From contig JAVHOW010000016.1 in NCBI GenBank assembly GCA_036170235.1, positions 5,511 to 69,510 on the forward strand: a stretch of 64,000 nucleotides of DNA, written 5' to 3'. Shown one piece after another: positions 3,403-56,908 of this stretch (positions are counted from its first letter, which is position 1; every line of letters starts with the position of its first letter). Both the position numbers and the translations under genes were made by a program. The stretch is from Minisyncoccota bacterium (GTDB taxonomy: Bacteria > Patescibacteriota > Minisyncoccia > Phycocordibacterales > PALSA-1337). The notes below the pieces were generated by a model that ran no database searches, had not been told where the DNA came from, and saw only the letters and a program-made list of their open reading frames with translations.

Positions 3403-3430
3403 TCGCTAGTAGTGTGAAAATGAGTGAACA

Positions 3431-3463
3431 AAAAAATCACCGTTTATGACGGTGATTTTTTTG
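3431..3463. terminator. Rho-independent terminator hairpin.
   Basis: aaaaaatcaccgtttatgacggtgattttttt. GC-containing stem followed by a T-run, between convergent genes. Confidence 0.6.
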
Positions 3464-3530
3464 TTGTGCCGGCTGGGACAATGTTTGGAACTTTTTTAGC
3501 TTGTAATATGGCTAAATAAGAAATACCTAG

Positions 3531-4073
3531 TCAAAAACTCATCTCGTACCAGTTTAGTTTATATATATCTTGAATCAATATTCTTTCACCCGTTGCCCAT
3601 GTCCTGTTCTTTTCCAGTCCAAGAAGCCCAATAGCTTTTCTAACACTCATTTCGCTTGAACCTTCAATTTCAAGAAACGCCGGCATCCCGGGGTATTGAT
3701 CTATGTCAAACGTCCAATCCTTTAATGAGAATGTTGTACGAATTTTTTCTTGATGTGCATACTTCTCGAGCCCAATTTCTTGGAATAAATCTGATAACTG
3801 TTCTGGTGTAGCAATGTTAAAGTTGATTTCTTTATGTTTTCTAACACCACCTGTAATGTTTGATTTCGCTTTCCATGTGACCTCATGCTTTCCTTCAGAA
3901 TTTGATCTTATCCGTAGAAACCAAAGATCCTCGCCTTCCTTCGTACCAATTGGTCTATACCAATCAACTATTAAGGTAGTTTTCTGTATCTTTTTTGCCT
4001 TCAATAAAATAAGTGACTTAATAATTTTTTTCTCATCAATATCCAGCACTTTTGTTTCGATTTCGAATGCCAT
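3531..4073 (-). CDS. CYTH domain protein (class IV adenylate cyclase / triphosphatase-like).
   Basis: N-terminal EIETK (ExExK) motif and the size are typical of CYTH/CyaB. Confidence 0.65.
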   Translation of the reverse strand: MAFEIETKVLDIDEKKIIKSLILLKAKKIQKTTLIVDWYRPIGTKEGEDLWFLRIRSNSEGKHEVTWKAKSNITGGVRKHKEINFNIATPEQLSDLFQEIGLEKYAHQEKIRTTFSLKDWTFDIDQYPGMPAFLEIEGSSEMSVRKAIGLLGLEKNRTWATGERILIQDIYKLNWYEMSF

Positions 4074-4095
4074 AAAAGTTTAGTTGATTAAAGAA

Positions 4096-4494
4096 TTATT
4101 TTCTTGCTGTCAATTCAATCTCTTCTTTTAGGAGGTCGAATTTTACTATGAATTTATCGAAGAAACCTTTTTGTCCTGCTAGTCCATAAGGTACAATATT
4201 TCCTCCAACTGAAGGCATAAATCCACCCTTAATATCGTATGATATATTACCGACTTTCAACGTAACTGGATGGACATAATACAAAGAAACTTTTCCTCCT
4301 ACACCAAACGCTTCTTTAATTTCACTGTTACTTCTATTTATACCAATATCTTCCCCAATTTCTGAGTCAAAAAAGCAGTGATCAGCACCGGAATCAACCA
4401 ATACTTCATAATCGGTAAACTTACCTTTATTTATTAGTTGCACTGATATAACAGGACGCAAAGCGTCCCCATATGCTTTATACTTGAACTTCAT
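4096..4494 (-). CDS. Retropepsin-like (clan AA) aspartic protease.
   Basis: VLVDSGADHCFFD contains the D-S/T-G-A active-site signature at ~130 aa. The start overlaps the upstream gene stop by ATGA. Confidence 0.7.
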   Translation of the reverse strand: MKFKYKAYGDALRPVISVQLINKGKFTDYEVLVDSGADHCFFDSEIGEDIGINRSNSEIKEAFGVGGKVSLYYVHPVTLKVGNISYDIKGGFMPSVGGNIVPYGLAGQKGFFDKFIVKFDLLKEEIELTARK

Positions 4495-4694
4495 AATAAG
4501 GCACCGCCAATAAAAGCTGATAAATTTGAAGGCATACGTGTAAAAATAGGGTGAGGATGACCATTCTTCAAGGCGCGGGCACGTGCTTCTTTCAATGTTT
4601 TACCGTATCCTACCACAGTTATTTCGTCTTTGAGTAAAGCTACCCAAAGTCCTTTATATTTTTTGTAGATTTGAGTCCAGTTGATTGCTGACAT
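4491..4694 (-). CDS. Small protein (DUF5678-like) cotranscribed with the aspartic protease.
   Basis: A 67-aa ORF with a 4-nt overlap with the protease gene. The KGLWVAL...VVGYGKTLKEARARA pattern is present. Confidence 0.5.
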   Translation of the reverse strand: MSAINWTQIYKKYKGLWVALLKDEITVVGYGKTLKEARARALKNGHPHPIFTRMPSNLSAFIGGALL

Positions 4695-4718
4695 ATCATA
4701 ATTTTAGCAACAAAAAGT

Positions 4719-4740
4719 ACTTCGTCAATATTGACGAAGT
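4719..4740. promoter_or_regulatory. Perfect 22-bp palindrome ACTTCGTCAATATTGACGAAGT upstream of the minus-strand three-gene operon. Candidate operator/promoter.
   Basis: Seen directly in the sequence, 25 nt upstream of the first gene start at 4694 on the minus strand. It contains TTGACG. Confidence 0.4.
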
Positions 4741-4935
4741 TATTCTCCAGTACTCTAATAAAGTTTTTGGTGCCCGGGGTGCCTAGTAGGTCAATCTGCT
4801 GATTGAGGAATCTTTCCTTACAGGAACTGTACAGGCTTCACATTTTTTCGAATTCGACAAGCTCATTCTCAAAAATATGTTCAGCCTTTTCGATTCCCAC
4901 ACGTGAGTCGCGCAGGCGACTCACTCCCGAGCCAC

Positions 4936-4966
4936 AAAAAAATCCGCAAAGAAGCGGATTTTTTTC
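4936..4966. terminator. Hairpin plus T-run terminator downstream of tRNA-Leu (minus strand).
   Basis: aaaaaaatccgcaaagaagcggattttttt. Confidence 0.55.
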
Positions 4967-4968
4967 TG

Positions 4969-5052
4969 TGCCCGGGGTGGGAATCGAACCCACACAGCCT
5001 TTCGGCTACAAAATTTTAAGTCTTGCGTGTATACCAATTTCACCACCCGGGC
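4969..5052 (-). tRNA. tRNA-Leu (anticodon UAA), type II with long variable arm.
   Basis: Cloverleaf folded by eye. Acceptor GCCCGGG/CCCGGGC, anticodon loop CUUAAAA, long variable arm GCCGAAAGGCU, T-loop GGTTCGATTCC. CCA is not encoded. Confidence 0.8.
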
Positions 5053-5154
5053 GGGTTAGTTATAAGTTTACAATTATCAGTCATTAATTACTATTCAAAG
5101 CGCACGGTGTTTTGACTTTTGACTAATAACTAATAATTGCAAACTAATAACTTG

Positions 5155-5227
5155 AGGCCACGGCGAGAATCGAACTCGCGTATAGCTCTTTTGCAGAGAG
5201 CCGAATTACCACTTTTCTACGTGGCCA
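5155..5227 (-). tRNA. tRNA-Cys (anticodon GCA).
   Basis: Acceptor GGCCACG/CGTGGCC, anticodon stem-loop GCTCT-CTGCAAA-AGAGC, T-arm GCGAGTTCGATTCTCGC. Confidence 0.8.
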
Positions 5228-5276
5228 CCTCACTATACTAGCACGTTACTTTACAGACTTTAAGGACTTTATGACT

Positions 5277-5603
5277 TTACAGACTCTTCTCGATTTCGTC
5301 TATCTTTTGCCTGTTTTTCTCACCGATATCGATTGCGACTTCAAAGAATGGAATGCGTCCAATACGAGATTTTTCCATGACATACTGACGAAAATCGGTA
5401 AGCTGACGATGGGCGAATTCGAGTGCGGATGCTTCAGCGTTTTCAGGTAGAACTGTCATCAGAATGCGCGCCTTGCCACCTCTACTGAATATTTCAACAC
5501 CTGTAATCGTGATCAATGATTGCCTGTTTGACTCGCGTGAAAAATACTCGGCAGCGAGCTCGCGAATCATTTCTTTTAGTTTGTCGTCTTTTTGAGCGGT
5601 CAT
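5277..5603 (-). CDS. rbfA: Ribosome-binding factor A.
   Basis: 108 aa, adjacent to infB as in the canonical nusA-infB-rbfA context. RbfA-like sequence. Confidence 0.8.
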   Translation of the reverse strand: MTAQKDDKLKEMIRELAAEYFSRESNRQSLITITGVEIFSRGGKARILMTVLPENAEASALEFAHRQLTDFRQYVMEKSRIGRIPFFEVAIDIGEKNRQKIDEIEKSL

Positions 5604-5616
5604 AAAATATATAATA

Positions 5617-7170
5617 TTAAACCTTCTCCACCGTCCTTATCGCTTCTATTCTATCTCCTGGCGCGACTTCAACTTTGGCATCTAATAACATACCAAACTC
5701 GAATCCTTCACGGACTTCATCCGTAGTTTTCTTTGCCTGCTGGAGTCCGCGTATTTTACCACGACCAATCTCGGCCTCACGACGCATGATACGTACTTCA
5801 TTTCCAGTAAAAATAGAGCCAGTTTCAACTTTGCCACCAACTACTTGCTTATCTTTTTCTTTTGAGAATAAAGCCATGATTTTGGCGCGGCCGGTCATTT
5901 CCTCGACATATTCTTTTGGAACTTTTGCCATGAGCGCGTCTTTGACATATTGCGTGAGTTCGTAAATTATACTGAAGTTTTTGACCGAAAGAGGAATCGC
6001 CGAACGTTCAATCATACTTTCAGCGCCTTTTTCCGGTGCGGCGTTGAAACCAATCAGAAGAATAGTTGGATCGCCGAGCGCTGTCTTCACATCATTTTCA
6101 TTTATGTCACCAATTCCTTCAGAGACAATTTTTAACTGGACTTTGTCATGTGTAACTTTTGCCAATTCATGCTTGACGCCATCGAGACTACCTATGACGT
6201 CGGCTTTAATAATGATTGGGACAATAACAATTGCCGGCTCTTCTTTTCCTGTCTTAGTTTTTTCGGTGATAGTAGAAACAGTTCTCATTTCATGTTCGTA
6301 TGCTTCTACCATTTTCTCCGCCCCTTTTTTGCTTGTTGTAGTCACAAAATCAATTCCACATGCCGGCATAGTATTCCAACCGAGAATTTTGATCGGCATT
6401 GCGGCAGTAGCAATCTCCACTTTTTCTCCTTTGAAATTTTCAATGAAACGAACTGGCGTGAATGCGTTGCCGGCAACCACAAATTCTCCTAGTTTTAGCG
6501 AACCATTTTTCAGAAGTAATGTCGCGGAAATACCTTTGCGCGTATCAAGTGTTGACTCAATGACACTGCCGGTTGCATTCAAACCTAAGTCAGCTTTTAG
6601 GTCAGCCAATTCTGTTACAAGCAGGAGCATGTCGAGTAGTTCAGGAACACCTTTGCCAGTCACTGCCGAAACTTCAACGCAAGGAACATCGCCACCCCAA
6701 CCTTCGACGTATATTTCATTTTCACCGAGACTTTGTTTGGCGCGTTCAATGTTCGCGTTCGGTTTGTCGATCTTGGTGATAGCAACGATGTAAGGGATTT
6801 TGGAATTTTTAATAATTTTGTAAGCTTCAACGGTCTGTGGTTTTACTCCATCTTCGGCAGATACGGCAAGAATTGCGACATCAGCAACCTGCGCGCCACG
6901 TTCGCGGATACCGCAGAAGGCTTCGTGACCAGGCGTGTCCAAGAAAGTCAGCATAGTTTTTTTGCCTTCAGGTGAAGTGTGTTCAACTTGGTACGCTCCC
7001 ATGTGCTGGGTTATACCGCCAGCCTCGCCAGCAACAATGTTGGTTTTGCGGATATAGTCGAGCAAAGTCGATTTGCCATGGTCAATATGCCCCATGACTA
7101 CAATCACAGGAGGACGCTCTGTATGCGAGGCCGTGACGATCAGGTTTTTATGATGTTTGGTAGGCATGGT
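5617..7170 (-). CDS. infB: Translation initiation factor IF-2, short form lacking the long N-terminal region.
   Basis: G domain GHIDHGKST, DTPGHEAF, NKID. Likely start is MPTKHH. The track ORF extends to 7242. Confidence 0.9.
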   Translation of the reverse strand, partial: TMPTKHHKNLIVTASHTERPPVIVVMGHIDHGKSTLLDYIRKTNIVAGEAGGITQHMGAYQVEHTSPEGKKTMLTFLDTPGHEAFCGIRERGAQVADVAILAVSAEDGVKPQTVEAYKIIKNSKIPYIVAITKIDKPNANIERAKQSLGENEIYVEGWGGDVPCVEVSAVTGKGVPELLDMLLLVTELADLKADLGLNATGSVIESTLDTRKGISATLLLKNGSLKLGEFVVAGNAFTPVRFIENFKGEKVEIATAAMPIKILGWNTMPACGIDFVTTTSKKGAEKMVEAYEHEMRTVSTITEKTKTGKEEPAIVIVPIIIKADVIGSLDGVKHELAKVTHDKVQLKIVSEGIGDINENDVKTALGDPTILLIGFNAAPEKGAESMIERSAIPLSVKNFSIIYELTQYVKDALMAKVPKEYVEEMTGRAKIMALFSKEKDKQVVGGKVETGSIFTGNEVRIMRREAEIGRGKIRGLQQAKKTTDEVREGFEFGMLLDAKVEVAPGDRIEAIRTVEKV

Positions 7171-16816: not shown

Positions 16817-17236
16817 TTAAATCACAACCGTCATCATGTTTGTTAAAGCAGAAAACAGGATTCGGATTAGTGAAATAATTAAAAGAAAGAACGAGATGAA
16901 TCCTGCCATGATGACAATGATTGTGCTGATAGTTTTTACTGGGAGCCAAATCTTCCATTTCTGATTTGGGCAACCAAGTTCTTCTTCGTAGTGGTTTATG
17001 AACCACACGATGCCTTTCAGTAAATTTCTTCCAACCAGAAATCCAAAGATCACAAGAACGATTTGCGCGGCAAGTGATTGGGCGATGCTGTAGGTCAAGA
17101 TGACCAAGAATGTGATGCTGAGGACCCACATACACAATCCTTTAAGTTGATCAGTCCGTCGGATAACTGGCGGGAATACGTGTTGATCTGGAGATTGACT
17201 TAGAATCTCACTGTTCCGGCTGAATAATTTTGCCAT
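16817..17236 (-). CDS. Hypothetical membrane protein.
   Basis: Two to three predicted TM helices. No recognised domain. Confidence 0.4.
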   Translation of the reverse strand: MAKLFSRNSEILSQSPDQHVFPPVIRRTDQLKGLCMWVLSITFLVILTYSIAQSLAAQIVLVIFGFLVGRNLLKGIVWFINHYEEELGCPNQKWKIWLPVKTISTIIVIMAGFISFFLLIISLIRILFSALTNMMTVVI

Positions 17237-17302
17237 AATTCACCTCATAGTTATTGGTTTTTGTTGTGCGAATTCGTAAGATACTGTACTCTTCATCTTA
17301 TG

Positions 17303-18562
17303 ATCAGTCAAGACCTAGCTAAAAATAAATTACCTGACAAACCTGGCGTTTATTTATTCCGCGACTATCGGGGTAGGCCGATCTATATTGGTCGGGCAAC
17401 TTCACTCAAAGATCGTGTAAAGAGTTATTTCTCCAATGACCTTATAGAAACTCGTGGTCCACGAATTGTGGATATGGTTACGAAATCGAAGAAGATAACA
17501 TGGAAAGAAACTGATTCTGTACTCGAAGCTATTATTCTTGAAAGCGTGCTCATCAAGCGTTATCAGCCACATTACAATGTCGATGAACGCGATGATAAAA
17601 GTTCGCAATATGTGGTTATAACCGATGAATTATGGCCGCGAGTATTTCTTGTTAGAGCTCGTGATTTTGACTTGGCTCACCGAAGCGGAGCGGAGGTGGC
17701 TCTTGGCTATAAAGTAAAAAAGTATTTTGGTCCATATCCGCACGGTGGATTGATCAAAGAAGCGCTTAAAATTCTTCGCAAATTATTTCCATTTAAAGAT
17801 AAGAAATCGTTTGACCAACGCCATGACGCGTTTTATCGTGCCATCGGTCGTTCACCGAAAGAAGATGATACCAATGCTCATAGACGCTATGTAAGGACGA
17901 TTGAAAACCTGATTTTATTTTTTGAAGGAAAGAAAGATCAGGTGCGAATGCGTATTGAAAAAGAGATGAGTGCATTTGCTCGCGCGTTAAAATTCGAATC
18001 AGCTGGACAATCAAAAAGACTTTTGTACGCGCTTGATCATATAAATGACATGGCGCTTATTAAACGAGAAAGTGAACGAAATGTTAGATCTGGTGGCTCA
18101 TTGAAGTCAGATTTTCGAATTGAAGCATATGATGTCGCGCATTTATCAGGAACTAATGTTGTTGGTGCCATGACGGTTTCAGTTAACAAAGAATTTGCGC
18201 TAGCTGAATATCGCAAGTTCAAAATTTCTCGACAAGTCAATGATGACCTTTCTGGACTCAAGGAAATCCTCAACCGTCGCCTCAATCATACAGAATGGGT
18301 ATATCCGGATTTTATTATTGTTGATGGAAACGAAACACACCTTTCGCATGCTGAATCAGTTCTTAAGGTTCGTCGAATTTCAATACCTATTATTGCGGTT
18401 ACAAAAGATGAACGGCATAAAGCGGCGCGATTTATTGGAAATCCAGATATTATTAAAAAATACAAAAAAGAAATAATTGCTTTGAATGCTGAAGCGCATC
18501 GTTTTGCTATAAAGTATCATCGGCAGAAAAGGGTTCGGTCATTCAGGGGCGGATTGGACTAA
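17303..18562 (+). CDS. uvrC: Excinuclease ABC subunit C, short form with GIY-YIG and endonuclease V-like domains and no C-terminal HhH.
   Basis: GVYLFRD...IYIGRATSLKDRVKSYF is GIY-YIG. DFIIVDGNETHLS...IPIIAVTKDERHK matches the UvrC RNase H-like region. Confidence 0.8.
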   Translation: MSQDLAKNKLPDKPGVYLFRDYRGRPIYIGRATSLKDRVKSYFSNDLIETRGPRIVDMVTKSKKITWKETDSVLEAIILESVLIKRYQPHYNVDERDDKSSQYVVITDELWPRVFLVRARDFDLAHRSGAEVALGYKVKKYFGPYPHGGLIKEALKILRKLFPFKDKKSFDQRHDAFYRAIGRSPKEDDTNAHRRYVRTIENLILFFEGKKDQVRMRIEKEMSAFARALKFESAGQSKRLLYALDHINDMALIKRESERNVRSGGSLKSDFRIEAYDVAHLSGTNVVGAMTVSVNKEFALAEYRKFKISRQVNDDLSGLKEILNRRLNHTEWVYPDFIIVDGNETHLSHAESVLKVRRISIPIIAVTKDERHKAARFIGNPDIIKKYKKEIIALNAEAHRFAIKYHRQKRVRSFRGGLD

Positions 18563-18590
18563 AGGTTTTTATAGCATTATACTTGTATGA

Positions 18591-19574
18591 ATGAAACACC
18601 TTACTCGCGTTGGCGTGCTCCGTGGCGGTCCAAGTAATGAATATGAAATTTCGCTCAATTCTGGGGCGACGGTACTTTCGGCATTGCGTACGCATTTCGA
18701 GCCGCAATACGAGCCCCGAGATATTTTTATTGATCGACAAGGAACATGGCATATTGATGGCGTGGCTGTAAATCCAGAAAGTATGTCTTCGAAGATTGAC
18801 GTGGCTTTCAACGCACTGCATGGTTCGTATGGCGAAGATGGAAAGATTCAGGCATTTCTTGAGGCACACTGCATTCCATTTACTGGTTCTGGATCGCTCG
18901 GTTCGGCAGTTGGCATGAATAAAATCCTCGCAAAAAAAATCTGCGCTGACCACGGTATCAAGAGTCCATATTGGAAAGAAGTTTCATCAGATTCGGTTCG
19001 TGCTGATGTGGAAGCGGTTGCGCAGGAATTATTCACTACTTTTATTTTGCCAGCGGTTGTCAAACCGAATTCTAGCGGTTCGTCTGTTGGCGTTTCGATA
19101 GTTCACAATTTTGCAGAATTGGTCACAGCTTTAATGAGTGCCGCTCTTCATGACGAAACTATTCTTATAGAAGAATTTATTCCCGGCATTGAGACTACTT
19201 GTGGCGTAATCGAGGGATTTCGTGGTCATGAATTATACGCCTTGCCACCAGTTGAGATCCGTCCCCATAGCGGTTTTTTTGATTATTCAGCAAAGTATCA
19301 GGGAAAATCAGAGGAAATAGTTCCAGCGACATTTTCAGAATCAATAAAAAAGTCTTTAGAAGATTTGGCTGGGAAAATTCATCTCGCTCTCGGTTTGCGA
19401 CATTATTCGCGTTCGGATTTTATCATTCACCCACGCAGGGGAATATACATGCTTGAAGTTAATACTCTGCCAGGACTTACTTCGGAATCATTAGTTCCAA
19501 AATCATTACGCGCAGTTGGAAGCGATGTTCATGAGTTGGTCGGTCATTTGATCGGTTTGGCGATGAAGAAATGA
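18591..19574 (+). CDS. ddl: D-alanine--D-alanine ligase.
   Basis: VGVLRGGPSNEYEISLNSG, HGSYGEDGKIQAFLE, and ATP-grasp motifs. Confidence 0.88.
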   Translation: MKHLTRVGVLRGGPSNEYEISLNSGATVLSALRTHFEPQYEPRDIFIDRQGTWHIDGVAVNPESMSSKIDVAFNALHGSYGEDGKIQAFLEAHCIPFTGSGSLGSAVGMNKILAKKICADHGIKSPYWKEVSSDSVRADVEAVAQELFTTFILPAVVKPNSSGSSVGVSIVHNFAELVTALMSAALHDETILIEEFIPGIETTCGVIEGFRGHELYALPPVEIRPHSGFFDYSAKYQGKSEEIVPATFSESIKKSLEDLAGKIHLALGLRHYSRSDFIIHPRRGIYMLEVNTLPGLTSESLVPKSLRAVGSDVHELVGHLIGLAMKK

Positions 19575-23214: not shown

Positions 23215-23262
23215 AATTGTACCTTGCGCTTCGATATAGCAGTGCTAGAATTATTACATAAT

Positions 23263-23562
23263 ATGAAACTCCAAACACATCTCGAAAACCTACGCGCAAA
23301 ACCAGAACATATCCGCAAAAGGATAGCTTTTTGGTCATCATTCGGAATTACTGCAATTATCTTTGCATTTTGGCTGGGTTCATTTTCTATTACTGGAAGT
23401 ACGGCAAGTGGTGCCGTGGCTTCTGCGGTCTCAAAAGCTGGTAGTCCTGGAAGCTCGCTGATTGCAGGCGTCGGAAACTTTTTTGTTGATATAAAGGAGA
23501 TGCTTTTTGGTGCGAAGAAGATCAAATATAGTGAGGTTGTGGTGACGCCGGGGAGTAAATAG
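23263..23562 (+). CDS. Hypothetical small membrane protein.
   Basis: One TM helix. The stop is immediately followed by a REP palindrome. Confidence 0.35.
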   Translation: MKLQTHLENLRAKPEHIRKRIAFWSSFGITAIIFAFWLGSFSITGSTASGAVASAVSKAGSPGSSLIAGVGNFFVDIKEMLFGAKKIKYSEVVVTPGSK

Positions 23563-24121
23563 TCCAAGGTCCGACCTTGGATAGGATGTTATTTTGTGGT
23601 CTCTTTTCACCCAAGTAATCTTTGAAACTTGAGAACTCATAGACCTTCGAATATTCGACTGCTCTATCATAGTGCTCATATCTTACTTCTCTCAACATAT
23701 CTGGTTCTTCAATACCAAAAGGGTTTAAATGTATATATTCAATAATACGAGCTAAATATTGATCGGTATCAATAGTTTTTGCTTTATATTTTCCTTGAAA
23801 TATTGTGCCCGAGTGATTATATTTTTTATTGAAATACATTACATACGCGGTACAGAGTTTTCTAACAAATTGTTCAACTTGCTGATCAGTTTCGACCATA
23901 AGTCCCAAATGAAAATGATTTGGCATAAGACAATACGAGAATATATCCACGAGATTTTGTTGTCGGTCTATAGAAAAAATATCAGATTTATTCAATTTGA
24001 AAACTAGAGGCTTTGAATCATTCGCTATATACAACAAACAGACAAAGCGTTGATAATCGCTCTTATCATTGAATATAGGCGCTTTATGAGCACCGCGATT
24101 GTAGATATGGTAGTAAGGCAT
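23522..24121 (-). mobile_element. IS200/IS605-like Y1 (HUH) transposase of the REP-associated tyrosine transposase (RAYT) type, flanked by two REP-like palindromes.
   Basis: YHIYNRGAHKAPIF and LMPNHFHLGL give the HUH motif as HFH plus a catalytic Tyr region. REP copies lie at 23563 and 24126 in inverted arrangement around it. The likely start MPYY is just inside the upstream REP. The track ORF extends to 24178 with GTG. Confidence 0.7.
23563..23581. repeat. REP-like 19-bp perfect palindrome TCCAAGGTCCGACCTTGGA, copy 1, at the 3' side of the RAYT gene.
   Basis: Exact palindrome seen in the sequence. Confidence 0.9.
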
Positions 24122-24125
24122 TTGT

Positions 24126-24144
24126 TCCAAGGTCAGACCTTGGA
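24126..24144. repeat. REP-like palindrome TCCAAGGTCAGACCTTGGA, copy 2, at the 5' side of the RAYT gene.
   Basis: Exact palindrome with a variable centre base. Confidence 0.9.
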
Positions 24145-24153
24145 CAACATATT

Positions 24154-24208
24154 CTATCAAACCGGAATGAAGAAACACTGAAGAAACGATAAAGAAGTAA
24201 TGAAGAAA
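24154..24208. repeat. ~45-bp repeat tatcaaaccRgaatgaagaaacactgaagaaacgataaRgaagtaatgaaga, copy A.
   Basis: Near-identical to 28475..28525 and 44725..44765. It lies at the 5' end of the minus-strand RAYT unit. Confidence 0.7.
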
Positions 24209-24268
24209 TTAAAAAACCGCGGGCGACTGGGTGTCGCGACGCGGATGAAAACGGCCTTCCATGTAATC

Positions 24269-24496: not shown

Positions 24497-24699
24497 TAAG
24501 GCATTCTTATGGAATCGTGCGGTGATAGAATCGGTTCTGTTGTCAATGGTTTTTGTTGATCTTAATTAGACGTGCCGGTAGTTTCATAGTTGACCTTTAA
24601 TTTTTTCTTATTTCTACTATGTATATTCTCATCTAATACACACAATGTCAAGCTGACACCACACCTTATTTTTGCTACAATTAAGTGGTAAAATAATTT

Positions 24700-24718
24700 T
24701 CCAAGGTCGGACCTTGGA
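24700..24718. repeat. REP-like palindrome TCCAAGGTCGGACCTTGGA, copy 3, 8 nt upstream of the gyrA start codon.
   Basis: Exact palindrome overlapping the expected RBS region of gyrA. Confidence 0.9.
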
Positions 24719-28539: not shown

Positions 28540-29211
28540 CTATTCAGCGCTCATAATGTACCCTCGACCAGGGACATTTTGGATATAATCAGGTTTATTT
28601 GAGGCATTGAGCTTCCTTCGGATATTGCGAAGATGCGTTTCTACAGTATTTGAGAGTATGTCTGCATCCGCGGTCCATACGTGTTCCAGAATAAGGATGC
28701 GTGATACCAAAGTTCCTTGGTGTTGAATTAGATATTCGAGCACGGCGAATTCTTTGCGAGTTAGAGATATATTGCGACCTTCGCGAGTGACAATGTGGGT
28801 ATCTTGATTGAGTATGATATCACCGACTACTAGGATTGGCTTCTTGGTTATATTTGGACGGCGATGAATAGCGCGCAAACGAGCCTGTAATTCCTCAAAT
28901 GAAAATGGCTTGACGAGATAATCGTCAGCGCCATGATCGAGTGCGGCTATTTTTGTTTCGACGGTATCAGTGACTGAAAGAAAAATAATCGGCGTGGTTT
29001 TTCCTGCCATCCGAATTTCTTTGCAAATCGTTAAGCCATCTTTTTTCGGTAGGGAATAATCTAGTAGGATCGCGTCATAGTCATAACTTTTTCCCATGAA
29101 TGATCCATCACCACCAGTGGATGCAATATCTACGGAGTAAGCTTTAGCTTTGAGGCTGTTCTCAAGCATATCTGCTAAACTCTTGTCATCTTCAACGATG
29201 AGGATTTTCAT
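28540..29211 (-). CDS. OmpR-family response regulator (REC + winged helix).
   Basis: MKILIVEDD...D...LPKKDG plus a C-terminal wHTH. Confidence 0.88.
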   Translation of the reverse strand: MKILIVEDDKSLADMLENSLKAKAYSVDIASTGGDGSFMGKSYDYDAILLDYSLPKKDGLTICKEIRMAGKTTPIIFLSVTDTVETKIAALDHGADDYLVKPFSFEELQARLRAIHRRPNITKKPILVVGDIILNQDTHIVTREGRNISLTRKEFAVLEYLIQHQGTLVSRILILEHVWTADADILSNTVETHLRNIRRKLNASNKPDYIQNVPGRGYIMSAE

Positions 29212-29312: not shown

Positions 29313-29331
29313 TCCAAGGTCCGACCTTGGA
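29313..29331. repeat. REP-like palindrome TCCAAGGTCCGACCTTGGA, copy 4, upstream of the 29360 gene.
   Basis: Exact palindrome 28 nt upstream of the ATG. TTGACA lies 9 nt further upstream. Confidence 0.9.
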
Positions 29332-30595: not shown

Positions 30596-30625
30596 ATCTT
30601 TGCAAGAATGTGGCAAAATAAAGCA

Positions 30626-30653
30626 AAAATCCGTCACCAAAGACGGATTTTTG
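30626..30653. terminator. Rho-independent terminator.
   Basis: aaaaatccgtcaccaaagacggattttt. Confidence 0.6.
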
Positions 30654-34006: not shown

Positions 34007-34015
34007 ATTTAAATG

Positions 34016-34034
34016 TCCAAGGTCTGACCTTGGA
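34016..34034. repeat. REP-like palindrome TCCAAGGTCTGACCTTGGA, copy 5, in the rplD-rplW spacer.
   Basis: Exact palindrome between L4 and L23 inside the operon. Confidence 0.9.
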
Positions 34035-34048
34035 CAAACTAAACCACC

Positions 34049-35401: not shown

Positions 35402-35429
35402 AAAAAATCGGTACATTACCGATTTTTTT
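35402..35429. terminator. Bidirectional terminator between rplB and the antisense HK.
   Basis: aaaaaatcggtacattaccgattttttt. Confidence 0.65.
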
Positions 35430-49357: not shown

Positions 49358-49384
49358 CAAAATCCCGTTCAAAAACGGGATTTT
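49358..49384. terminator. Rho-independent terminator after secY.
   Basis: aaaatcccgttcaaaaacgggatttt. Confidence 0.6.
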
Positions 49385-49502
49385 GCGAGGTTTACCTTCA
49401 TAATTTGGATTCCTCCCCTTGTCAGTTTTATAAGTATAGGCTATTTAAATAAAAAATCAAATTTGACTCCCACCCCCAATTCTGATAGTCTATATTCTAC
49501 CT

Positions 49503-52513: not shown

Positions 52514-53878
52514 ATGAAAATTTCCTACACACAACTGCAAACATACCTTGAAGACAAACTTCCAACACCAGAAAAGTTGGCTGACGCTTTCACTTTTCAT
52601 GCATTCGAAATCGAGAGTATGGAGAAGGAGGGTGACGATACCATTTTAGACATAAAAGTTTTGCCAGATCGCGCTTGTTACGCAAAATCTTATGAAGGTA
52701 TTGCGCGAGAAGTGTCGGCGATTCTTGGTTTGAAAAAGAAAGCAGAAAAAGTGAAAATTCCCGATTCGAAGCACACGATTACTGTTTCAATTTCTCAAAT
52801 AAATGAAGTGCTTGGTTCGGATATTTCACAAAAAGAAGCGGTTTCGATTTTGACTAGAATGGACATTAAAGTTACAGAAAAAGGGGATATTCTCGAGCTC
52901 TCAGTACCCTGCGATAGGCTTGATTTGCAGTCATGGCGCGATATTCCCGAGGAAGTTGGACGTATTTATGGTTATGACAAAATTAAGTCGATTTTGCCAA
53001 AAAATACTACATTTAAGCCTATTGTTGAGAAAGCATTTTATTACACTGAAAAGATCAAGAATATTCTAGTTTCTGCGGGTTTTTCCGAAGTTTACACCTA
53101 CAGTTTAGTTGCAAAAGGCGTGTATGAAATCGAGAAACCTTTGGCGGCTGATAAGAATCATTTGCGAACAAATCTGACTGATGGAATAGTGAAGTCGCTT
53201 GAGTTCAACGCACGAAATGCTGATTTGCTTGGCTTGGATGAGATTAAAATCTTTGAGATTGGTAAAGTGTTTACAAAAGATGGCGAGCACACTTCGTTGT
53301 GTGTTGGGATAAAAAATATCAAGAAAGCAAAAGGTGCTGAGTTGGCAAAAGAAAAAATTAAAAAAGTTCGCGACGAGGTGCTTAAAGTTCTTGAAGTAAA
53401 TGCGACTATTCTCTGCACGGTTGATGATTCTGGCGGAATTATTTCTTTGAATGTGGAAGCGGTTGGTATGACCAATAATTCAGACGGGATTTTCGAAATT
53501 AATCTTGATAAAGTGGTGGCGACGTTATCGGAGCCTAATTCGTATGCGGATCTCAATTTTAGTAAGGCTACAACGATAGAATACAAGAAGTTTTCTGTAT
53601 ATCCGTTCATTGTGCGCGATATAGCTGTTTTTGTCCAAGGTCCGACCTTGGACACTGAAGTTTGGTCTGTAATAGAAAAAGTTCTGAATGAGGTTGGTGC
53701 CGCGAATTTATTGGCTCATCATTCATTGTTCGATACATTCAAAAAAGATGGCAAAGTTTCGTACGCTTATAGGATGATATTCCAATCTATGGAAAAAACT
53801 CTAACAGATGACGAGGTTAATTCTATTATGGAAAAAATTTATGCTGAAATAAAAGGTAAGGGTTGGGAGGTGAGGTAA
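52514..53878 (+). CDS. pheT: Phenylalanine--tRNA ligase beta subunit, short form (454 aa).
   Basis: B1 N-terminus MKISYTQLQTYL. B3/4, B5 and the FDX-ACB C-terminus (FPFIVRDIAVFV). It contains a REP palindrome in-frame. Confidence 0.85.
   Translation: MKISYTQLQTYLEDKLPTPEKLADAFTFHAFEIESMEKEGDDTILDIKVLPDRACYAKSYEGIAREVSAILGLKKKAEKVKIPDSKHTITVSISQINEVLGSDISQKEAVSILTRMDIKVTEKGDILELSVPCDRLDLQSWRDIPEEVGRIYGYDKIKSILPKNTTFKPIVEKAFYYTEKIKNILVSAGFSEVYTYSLVAKGVYEIEKPLAADKNHLRTNLTDGIVKSLEFNARNADLLGLDEIKIFEIGKVFTKDGEHTSLCVGIKNIKKAKGAELAKEKIKKVRDEVLKVLEVNATILCTVDDSGGIISLNVEAVGMTNNSDGIFEINLDKVVATLSEPNSYADLNFSKATTIEYKKFSVYPFIVRDIAVFVQGPTLDTEVWSVIEKVLNEVGAANLLAHHSLFDTFKKDGKVSYAYRMIFQSMEKTLTDDEVNSIMEKIYAEIKGKGWEVR
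53634..53652. repeat. REP-like palindrome TCCAAGGTCCGACCTTGGA, copy 6, inside the pheT coding sequence (encodes VQGPTLD).
   Basis: Exact 19-mer within the ORF. The ORF length is unchanged relative to the expected PheT spacing. Confidence 0.9.
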
Positions 53879-54044: not shown

Positions 54045-54497
54045 ATGACTAATATGACTATTTCACCTATACAACCAATTCGAGGGGATTACGTTACAAA
54101 AGGAGAGTTCGGAGAATTCAAAGCTGAAATGCGCAATTTTCACTTCGGGTTCAATGATTTTAGAGAGGAGATGTATATTTTCAAAGATGATGTCTCAAAA
54201 CGCTTTGATGCCGTAGATGCACGCTTTGGTGCTGTAGATTCACACTTTGATGCTGTTGATGCACGCTTTGATGCTGTTGATTCACGGTTTGATGCTGTTG
54301 ATGCTCGATTTGATTCAATAGATGCTCGATTAGGTTCACATGATACACGTTTAGCTGGTATTGATAAACGGATCGATGTATTAACCAAGAGTCTGTTTGA
54401 ATTTCGTGAGGAAGTTCCACGATATATGAAAACGTTACAAGAAGGATTTCGTGAGGATCTTAGAATAGCGCTCGAAATACATAGCACTCAAAAATAA
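54045..54497 (+). CDS. Heptad-repeat protein with 8 tandem xFDAVDxR units, probably coiled-coil.
   Basis: RFDAVDARFGAVDSHFDAVDARFDAVDSRFDAVDARFDSIDARL is encoded by 21-bp tandem DNA repeats. Confidence 0.55.
   Translation: MTNMTISPIQPIRGDYVTKGEFGEFKAEMRNFHFGFNDFREEMYIFKDDVSKRFDAVDARFGAVDSHFDAVDARFDAVDSRFDAVDARFDSIDARLGSHDTRLAGIDKRIDVLTKSLFEFREEVPRYMKTLQEGFREDLRIALEIHSTQK
54205..54372 (+). repeat. Tandem 21-bp repeats (8 units, degenerate) inside the 54045 CDS.
   Basis: tttgatgccgtagatgcacgc / tttggtgctgtagattcacac / tttgatgctgttgatgcacgc ... Confidence 0.8.
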
Positions 54498-56869: not shown

Positions 56870-56875
56870 TAAATT

Positions 56876-56904
56876 AAAAATACCCTTGAGCAAGGGTATT
56901 TTTA
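56876..56904. terminator. Bidirectional terminator between gyrB and hsp20.
   Basis: aaaaatacccttgagcaagggtattttta. Confidence 0.65.
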
Positions 56905-56908
56905 ATTC

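Follow-up and report, generated by a model that had tools for sequence, protein, structure and literature searches.

The 64,000-nucleotide stretch of DNA analysed here (the window; contig JAVHOW010000016.1 of a Minisyncoccota bacterium) contains, on the minus strand at 23522–24121, a gene for a Y1/HUH tyrosine transposase that resembles the REP-associated tyrosine transposases (RAYTs; REP, repetitive extragenic palindrome). The gene is the only one of its kind in the window; its neighbours are open reading frames (ORFs) of 112 and 75 amino acids (aa) without Pfam matches, and no tnpB gene adjoins it. Around it, and scattered farther along the window, lies a perfect palindrome of 19 bp with a variable centre base, TCCAAGGTCNGACCTTGGA. 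Both elements were proposed in an initial annotation made from the letters of the sequence, and both were found. The 19-mer occurs in six exact copies, starting at 23563, 24126, 24700, 29313, 34016, and 53634, with the centre bases C, A, G, C, T, and C, respectively. The gene encodes 199 aa from the ATG at 24121, and its product contains the motifs YHIYNRG and PNHFHLG and matches Pfam Y1_Tnp (E 2e-10, 41 bits; cut-off 23). The proposal that one copy of the palindrome stands on each side of the gene holds for the 5′ copy, which precedes the ATG by 4 nt; the 3′ copy lies inside the ORF, after codon 180.

A protein search returned 4,031 proteins at E ≤0.001, the best 120 of which are about 190 residues long. 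Where the homologues are named, they are transposases of Patescibacteria or Paceibacterota, in agreement with the initial view of the host as a genome of the Candidate Phyla Radiation (CPR) type, and the label given by IMG is ‘REP element-mobilizing transposase RayT’. Conservation was read from an alignment of 37 homologues out of the best 120. Invariant in this alignment are the N-terminal Y-N-R-G, the histidines H69 and H71 of the HUH motif, Y129-x-H-L-N-P, and the C-terminal YSS..DY...R, and conservation ends after RPQxxIL at residue 180. The conserved core comprises residues 1–180 (nt 24121–23582). Since the ORF reads through the 3′ palindrome, which starts after codon 180, the last 19 residues (181–199) are a palindrome-encoded, non-conserved tail. 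The variable tails of the homologues are translations of their own 3′ palindromes, e.g., ...LQGPTLE, ...GRSDLGT, or ...SKVEPR. The NCBI protein for the gene (P0001) has 218 aa, which fits an ORF starting from GTG at 24178 and reading through the 5′ palindrome; the homologues favour ATG 24121 over GTG 24178 as the start. The AlphaFold2 model of the protein (pLDDT 88) is nearest to PDB entry 4ER8, the Escherichia coli TnpA-REP protein with a REP hairpin, which was ranked first by Foldseek, and in the fold ranking it stands clearly nearer to RAYT than to TnpA of IS608 or IS200. The Y1/HUH fold and the catalytic motifs are present, and the protein, as modelled, is structurally closer to RAYT than to the transposases of insertion sequences (IS). 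On sequence comparison, it is a distant and separate family.

All six copies of the palindrome in the window are perfect and none is decayed; when up to three mismatches were allowed, no further copy was found in the window, and the 9-base half-site has no occurrence there outside the palindrome. Dinucleotide shuffles of the window gave 0.00–0.04 matches to the 19-mer against the six observed. The sequences flanking the six copies are mutually unrelated, and the copies are therefore not pieces of a larger duplication. Folding of single-stranded DNA (ssDNA) predicts a stable hairpin for each of them, with dG of −7 to −10 kcal/mol and z of −4 to −6 relative to shuffles. The core of the hairpin is a stem ending in AGG/CCT, which closes five central bases, TCNGA in the window family, and the outer two base pairs of this loop are able to pair further.

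The individual copies occupy various positions in relation to genes. Copy 1 (23563–23581, centre C; dG −7.2 kcal/mol), at the 3′ flank of the RAYT-like gene directly after codon 180, abuts the TAG stop of a convergent ORF (23224–23562). Copy 2 (24126–24144, centre A; dG −8.0 kcal/mol) forms the 5′ flank, and 6 nt further upstream of it, on the minus strand, lies TGATAGAAT, an extended −10-like motif. Copy 3 (24700–24718, centre G) is located 7 nt upstream of the start codon (24726) of gyrA, the product of which was recognized as GyrA by Pfam, and its 3′ arm leads into GGAG, a Shine-Dalgarno-like sequence. A promoter-like site, CTGACA-17-TACAAT with TG, precedes gyrA on the plus strand at 24653–24681 (a consensus match only); given this site, copy 3 probably belongs to the 5′ untranslated region (UTR) of gyrA, at about +11 to +30 of the transcript. 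Copy 4 (29313–29331, centre C) lies between two divergent genes, one for a response regulator (28540–29211, minus strand) and one for a PG_binding_1 (peptidoglycan-binding) protein, 28 nt upstream of the ATG (29360) of the latter. Copies 5 and 6 lengthen to perfect palindromes of 23 bp. Copy 5 (34014–34036, with the 19-mer at 34016–34034; centre T; dG −10.3 kcal/mol) is found in a ribosomal-protein operon, after the stop of rplD (34006) and before the start of rplW (34049). Copy 6 (53632–53654, with the 19-mer at 53634–53652; centre C) is in frame within pheT (52514–53878), and due to its position within this coding sequence the repeat is not strictly extragenic. It is translated as V-Q-G-P-T-L-D in a loop of the FDX-ACB domain of PheT, where most orthologues have P-E-S-V-S-A-E, a peptide of equal length.

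The 19-mer was also searched for in a 596-Gb collection containing one genome per species, from which the source genome of the window is absent, and matches were found in 73 stretches. Five of these are single matches outside CPR, about nine chance matches being estimated for 596 Gb (18 specified bases). The remaining stretches come from about 29 Patescibacteria species genomes, and the exact 19-mer is present in Saccharibacteria, Paceibacterota, and Kaiser-, Yonath-, Lloyd-, Yanofsky-, Nomura-, and Tagabacteria, so the repeat is not a mere local duplication. One Saccharibacteria genome of ~0.97 Mb (CAYPDT) contains 31 copies and each other genome contains 1–5; a scan of viral contigs for the 19-mer gave nothing. 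The exact 19-mer directly adjoins homologues of the gene (33–45% identity) at six further loci of Patescibacteria, and at two of them (L064 and L065) it does so on both flanks. The pairing of gene and palindrome extends to other sequences of the palindrome. Four homologues with 56–64% identity are each bracketed 5′ and 3′ by their own distinct palindrome (GTACAAGGTAGCACCTTGTAC, TACAAGGGTAGCCCTTGTA, CGTCAAGATGACATCTTGACG, and CCGAGGTGGAACCTCGG). In addition, 80 loci were taken from more than 592 confirmed in a metagenome scan with the family alignment, and together with the four closer homologues they provided 74 loci in which each side of the gene had 120 nt or more of sequence. In 59 of the 74, the 5′ and 3′ flanks have in common a 12-mer or longer sequence, nearly always a palindrome; of 374 placements chosen at random within these loci, 5 did so. 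When 54 palindromes were aligned on their centre, AGG-N5-CCT was present in 52. Positions −5 to −3 are A, G, and G, and positions +3 to +5 are C, C, and T, in 53–54 of the 54, giving six invariant positions; the next two positions outward are CA/TG in 35 of these palindromes, and the loop and outer stem are variable. The palindromes vary by locus, and in a neighbour-joining protein tree sister genes have the same or similar palindromes. With zero copies expected, six unrelated flanks, and the association of motif and gene seen in assemblies from many independent studies, an origin of this arrangement by chance, local duplication, or assembly artefact is extremely improbable.

The presence of hairpins on both sides of the gene can also be explained by an autonomous IS200/IS605 element, in which the palindromes would form the hairpins of the left and right ends and the dispersed copies would be solo ends or miniature derivatives. 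The protein is a member of Y1_Tnp, IS200/IS605 elements have similar hairpins at both ends too, and most of the distant homologues show the palindrome at the two flanks only, within the nearby sequence. However, the window has six hairpins to one Y1/HUH gene, and among the 8-kb stretches around the 31 hairpins of CAYPDT a homologue was found in L065 only. Comparison of 91 genes revealed a single near-identical pair and none in different contexts; the members of this identical pair have a common upstream flank and therefore represent the same locus in two samples. Nothing indicates, among these 91 genes, that the gene itself gets copied. The genes are situated mid-contig in long assemblies of up to 516 kb, and the absence of an adjoining tnpB, the position of the fold clearly nearer to RAYT, and the failure to find the 19-mer in viral contigs also argue against an autonomous element, which we regard as unlikely.

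Where the palindrome resides was determined for 81 Patescibacteria copies of the 19-mer placed on a crude gene map. Sixty copies (74%) are intergenic, as compared with 19% of random positions, and 21 are intragenic, as compared with 81% of random positions. Among the intergenic copies, 29 lie at most 40 nt from a 3′ end, 15 precede a start by at most 40 nt, and the other 16 have neither position. The intragenic copies, about a quarter of the total, are distributed over about 20 different housekeeping genes and all three reading frames, and are translated as xQG[RP]TL[ED], PRSDLG, or SKV[RG]PW. Their hosts include the genes for LeuRS (two genomes, same loop), PolA, DHFR, RNase HII, UvrC (three sites), TsaD, cysteine desulfurase (two genomes, same region), GrpE, a P-type ATPase, RpiB, a helicase, and an M20 peptidase. 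Another host is the RAYT gene of L019 (~6627) and L128: there, the palindrome lies in frame after the N-terminal region and ahead of the HUH motif, and is read as QGRTLE. At the same site, related genes have the decayed forms QGSTL, RGLTL, and KGLTF. The sequence at this site suggests an old insertion that was kept perfect in some lineages only.

These positions bear on another explanation, according to which the palindrome is a cis-acting element of the host (an operator, a 5′-UTR or intercistronic RNA stem-loop, or a chromosome-organisation site) and the Y1 protein only binds or regulates it, without transposition. Four of the six copies in the window are located 4–28 nt upstream of a start codon, with the 3′ arm providing GGA(G), and in one Saccharibacteria genome many copies stand between a promoter-like motif and a Shine-Dalgarno sequence. 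In the Saccharibacteria loci L003, L011, L012, L013, L037, L040, and L065 (CAYPDT01) and L023 (CAYMTU01), a conserved motif of ~20 nt, consisting of AAACATAnTAnnaCCACATTTT, 4–6 nt, and GTT, occurs upstream of the palindrome, and in the same genome a GGAGG-like sequence and a start codon follow within ~10–25 nt after many copies; this layout looks like the order promoter, hairpin, Shine-Dalgarno. The perfection of all copies in the window and the retention of an identical sequence over distant lineages could be explained by such a function as well. However, copies are present in three reading frames within about 20 housekeeping genes, at gene 3′ ends, and between convergent genes, related contigs differ in whether a site is filled, and the sequence shifts by lineage along with the gene that it flanks. 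Most copies are not followed by a T-run and are therefore not general intrinsic terminators. A purely regulatory or structural role of the palindrome is thus quite improbable. Four more specific identities were considered and rejected. As intrinsic terminators, the copies would be unusual in that most have no T-run and many lie upstream of or inside genes. A DNA-uptake sequence does not agree with a half-site that never occurs alone and with a density that is far too low in most genomes. For a parS-like site, copies are spread too widely, over a 698-kb contig, and their sequence changes with the flanked gene. A conserved peptide motif is contradicted by the reading of the palindrome in all three frames.

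The comparison with related genomes, which the initial annotation had recommended, revealed individual sites in filled and empty states. The contigs of two relatives, L078 and L079 (PheT 85% and 84% identical), are syntenic with the window at ~45–62 kb. At the pheT site, the window has the palindrome, occupying 21 nt of unchanged length, whereas L078 and L079 are empty and have the widespread PESV-type loop. At an intergenic site after a PrsW-protease gene, TACTGAGGTCGGACCTCAGTA is present in L078, whereas the sequence is uninterrupted in the window and in L079. The pheT site of L080 and L081 contains GTACAAGGTC[C/A]GACCTTGTAC, i.e., the same core with both arms altered symmetrically; such changes may reflect template switching from arm to arm or replacement by the variant proper to each genome. 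The palindrome-encoded loop is patchy over the PheT tree. The local identity of L080 and L081 around the palindrome is 0.93 versus 0.67 overall, and thus allele exchange by recombination probably contributes to the patchy distribution at pheT. In the LeuRS of L020, the loop that contains the copy retains the canonical length of 17 residues, whereas the loop in L073 is 5 residues longer. Length-neutral overwriting was rejected as a general rule: it holds for pheT, for the LeuRS of L020, and for one uvrC site, but elsewhere the copies add 3–30 residues.

Several observations made in the same regions are worth recording. The pheT of the window is a short form (454 aa, with the B5, core, and FDX-ACB domains and no B3_4), like that of the closest relatives; the somewhat more distant relatives P0129, P0143, and P0148 have ~655 aa with B3_4. 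Between the EF-Ts gene and pheS, L078 contains a restriction-modification pair (RE_NgoPII and a DNA methylase, 4016–5936), which is absent from the syntenic L079 and L080. In proteins P0241–P0360, the LeuRS loop WIGRSEG-TTRPDT contains other recurring peptides (ISNSQFSI, SNFQF, SKFKV, and SSFKFQ), and some loops have 28–31 residues; this loop may host other small inserted elements.

The immediate surroundings of the palindrome were compared for 85 copies. The flanks only prolong the palindrome, with T or G at −1, T at −2, and the complementary bases on the other side in 57–58 of the 85, so that such extensions (TT...AA or TG...CA) are found in about two thirds of copies, and there is no conservation in these flanks beyond position 3. 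No conserved 2-bp target, for which the initial annotation had proposed a test, was found. Seventy-three of the 85 copies have C or G at the centre. Seven doublets were found in genomes other than that of the window, six of them in the copy-rich Saccharibacteria genome, and in all of them the centres are C and then G, which means an inverted arrangement of fixed polarity. Six doublets are spaced by 41–44 bp and the seventh, from another Saccharimonadales genome, by 65 bp. The spacers are unrelated, and the doublet is therefore not obviously a replicating unit.

Because the anatomy (a gene, two flanking hairpins, and solo hairpins) and the comparative evidence fit, the locus is, very probably, a REP/RAYT-type system, in which a Y1/HUH gene lies between its cognate hairpins and the same hairpin is scattered in the genome. 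The initial annotation had arrived at the same reading, and it is borne out by a Y1/HUH protein for which the RayT model is the sole NCBIfam match, by a fold nearest to the E. coli RAYT–REP complex, and by a hairpin that both flanks the gene and is dispersed. Membership among the RAYTs is supported by the fold, the catalytic motifs, the flanking repeats, their dispersal, and their co-variation with the protein, but not by the curated NCBIfam score. The profile search proposed at the outset thus gave a divided answer: the Pfam Y1 transposase model was matched, but the RayT model (NF047646) scored 42 bits, below its curated equivalog cut-off of 80. This shortfall is one of several results that weigh against a REP/RAYT system. 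Searches of PDB sequences with the single protein and with the 37-sequence profile gave nothing significant, and the placement of the protein among known structures therefore comes from fold comparison alone. No GTAG or CGTC tag was found at the end of the hairpin in the flanks of the 85 copies. The hairpin is perfectly symmetric and therefore has no obvious polarity except for its centre base. All six copies in the window are singletons, with no inverted doublets (REPINs) among them. At least four separate clades of the protein tree have the window 19-mer as their cognate repeat, which is not accounted for by simple co-divergence. Finally, for most of the distant homologues no extra palindrome copies were seen within 1–10 kb of sequence around the gene, and dispersal is therefore demonstrated for some genomes only.

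The template for a mechanism is provided by the solved systems of the E. coli RAYT (structure paper PMC3479197) and of IS608, in which a hairpin forms on ssDNA and cleavage and joining are carried out by a tyrosine and the metal site of the HUH motif. By analogy, the Y1/HUH protein of the window would be a single-copy, domesticated homologue of tyrosine transposases, and the palindrome would fold into a hairpin where DNA is single-stranded for a short time, e.g., in a transcription bubble or on the lagging-strand template. The protein would then read both the apex, with its invariant AGG-N5-CCT, and the outer stem and loop, which are specific to the lineage. With a metal ion held by H69 and H71, Tyr129 would cut at the foot of the hairpin and rejoin the strand elsewhere, and such cutting and rejoining would copy or move hairpins. 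It is inferred from these known systems that the protein performs the cleavage and strand-transfer chemistry, recognizes the apex, and mobilises the hairpins. The two hairpins that flank the gene may be descendants of the ends of an ancestral IS200-like element, co-inherited with the gene. More speculatively, the hairpins before the starts of gyrA, the RAYT gene, and rplW could act as 5′-UTR stem-loops partly covering the Shine-Dalgarno-like GGA(G).

A further, rather doubtful proposal concerns the active maintenance of the hairpins: hairpin-directed copy-correction by the Y1 protein, or recombination set off by this protein, may preserve their perfection and rewrite them at fixed sites, loops of essential genes among them. 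Rewriting would explain the lack of decayed copies in the window, the length-neutral loops in pheT and in one LeuRS, the presence at the pheT site of each genome's own symmetric variant, and the identity of the 19-mer over distant lineages and several protein clades. If it takes place, then the REP/RAYT-type system described here would be a long-lived genome-editing or genome-marking system, not a miniature transposon.

The initial annotation considered REP/RAYT systems to be described mainly in Proteobacteria, but they are already known from at least 8 phyla (PMC3733652). A survey of Y1 proteins that drew on the complete genomes of 1,354 species makes no mention of Patescibacteria or of any CPR lineage (PMC6006769), and no description of a REP/RAYT system in Patescibacteria or CPR was found in the searchable literature. 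At the level of the gene, the family is expected, since it is already annotated automatically as RayT by IMG. The hairpin family, with its invariant apex, Patescibacteria-wide spread, and frequent in-frame residence in essential genes, appears to be undescribed, and the protein–hairpin family appears to be specific to Patescibacteria. Intragenic REPs in uvr genes, polA, and tRNA synthetase genes, and REPs in tnpA-REP genes, have been reported from other phyla (PMC3733652, PMC6006769). Non-IS Y1 genes are reported to be enriched in large genomes (PMC6006769), and a system thriving in genomes of ~1 Mb with very little intergenic space runs counter to this enrichment. With thousands of homologues, more than 590 loci, and six invariant hairpin positions around which the outer stem and loop vary with the protein, the hairpin–protein set forms ready-made co-variation data for the recognition code of a Y1 enzyme. 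To our knowledge, how RAYTs read and spread their hairpins is not settled experimentally, and REP/RAYT pairs are regarded as the sole class of bacterial mobile DNA with very long vertical persistence. The position of copies has practical consequences too: a quarter of them are in frame in essential genes and several lie directly before start codons, which affects gene calling, as in the NCBI start at GTG 24178, and possibly expression.

Other features were noted beside the REP/RAYT-type system. An Rfam scan of the window detected four tRNAs only. Long perfect palindromes composed of an A-run, a G+C stem, and a T-run are located at 3427–3465, 4936–4965, 30624–30653, 35402–35428, 49358–49385, and 56872–56907; these six resemble bidirectional intrinsic terminators and have no relationship with the family of the 19-mer. 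At 54045–54497, an ORF of 150 aa contains a tandem peptide repeat of the DARFDAVDSRF type, with only weak, sub-cut-off matches to coiled-coil families (DUF7310 and DUF16). In L076, a reverse transcriptase (RVT_1) and a bAvd gene (16960–18872) lie beside a gene for a very large Hint/LVIVD protein, ~6 kb from the RAYT gene; this locus is probably a diversity-generating retroelement.

Among known systems, the nearest comparison is with the E. coli REPs, with their bacterial interspersed mosaic elements (BIMEs), and TnpA-REP (RAYT, YafM; 4ER8). Here, too, a single Y1/HUH gene is bracketed by a hairpin that is dispersed in the genome, and the HUH and catalytic-tyrosine motifs are conserved. The proteins differ, however, with 9–14% identity in structure-based alignments to 4ER8, and the Patescibacteria protein has an extra conserved C-terminal segment, YSSFKDYLGExRPQxxIL. 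The E. coli RAYT reads a 5′ GT[AG]G tag, whereas the Patescibacteria hairpin is a perfect palindrome of 19–23 bp with an AGG-N5-CCT apex, without a 5′ GTAG guide and without a bulge. The Patescibacteria host genome is, moreover, roughly 1 Mb in size. The canonical REP foot or tag has been defined as GTAG or CGTC (Di Nocera 2013, PMC3733652) or as GT[AG]G (Quentin 2018, PMC6006769). The REPIN–RAYT systems of Pseudomonas (Bertels and Rainey; PMC3116915, PMC5581495) resemble the system described here in an apparently single-copy gene flanked by abundant short repeats, in a repeat family of its own for each gene variant with no sign of gene duplication, and in the inverted doublets of fixed polarity that were seen in one Saccharibacteria genome. 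They differ in that the copies in the window are singletons, the Saccharibacteria doublets have constant spacing (41–44 bp) and unrelated spacers, and copy numbers in Patescibacteria are low, ~1 per 10–30 kb and 1–5 per genome in most species.

Flanking structures without a GT[AG]G tag are known for TnpA-Y1 subclass 2.6 and for the atypical REPs of class 3 (Quentin et al., 2018; PMC6006769). An in-frame hairpin inside the transposase gene, in the interval between the N-terminus and HUH, is known for the tnpA-REP genes of subclass 2.4 (PMC6006769) and corresponds to the copies in L019 and L128. These subclasses come from Bacteroidetes, Planctomycetes, Acidobacteria, and Proteobacteria, and their structures are weak, whereas the palindromes of Patescibacteria are strong and perfect. 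In-frame residence in housekeeping genes, including uvrC, polA, and aminoacyl-tRNA synthetase genes, is common to the Patescibacteria repeat and to the intragenic REPs and Rickettsia palindromic elements (Di Nocera et al., 2013; PMC3733652). The Patescibacteria unit is much shorter, adding ~7 codons, and has no GTAG or CGTC tag, and the loops of pheT and of the L020 LeuRS are filled without a change in length. With TnpA of IS200/IS608, finally, the fold and the presumed chemistry are common, and hairpins are located at both ends of the gene; in the system described here, however, neither multiple gene copies, among the 91 genes, nor a tnpB next to the gene of the window were found, and the solo hairpins far outnumber the gene.

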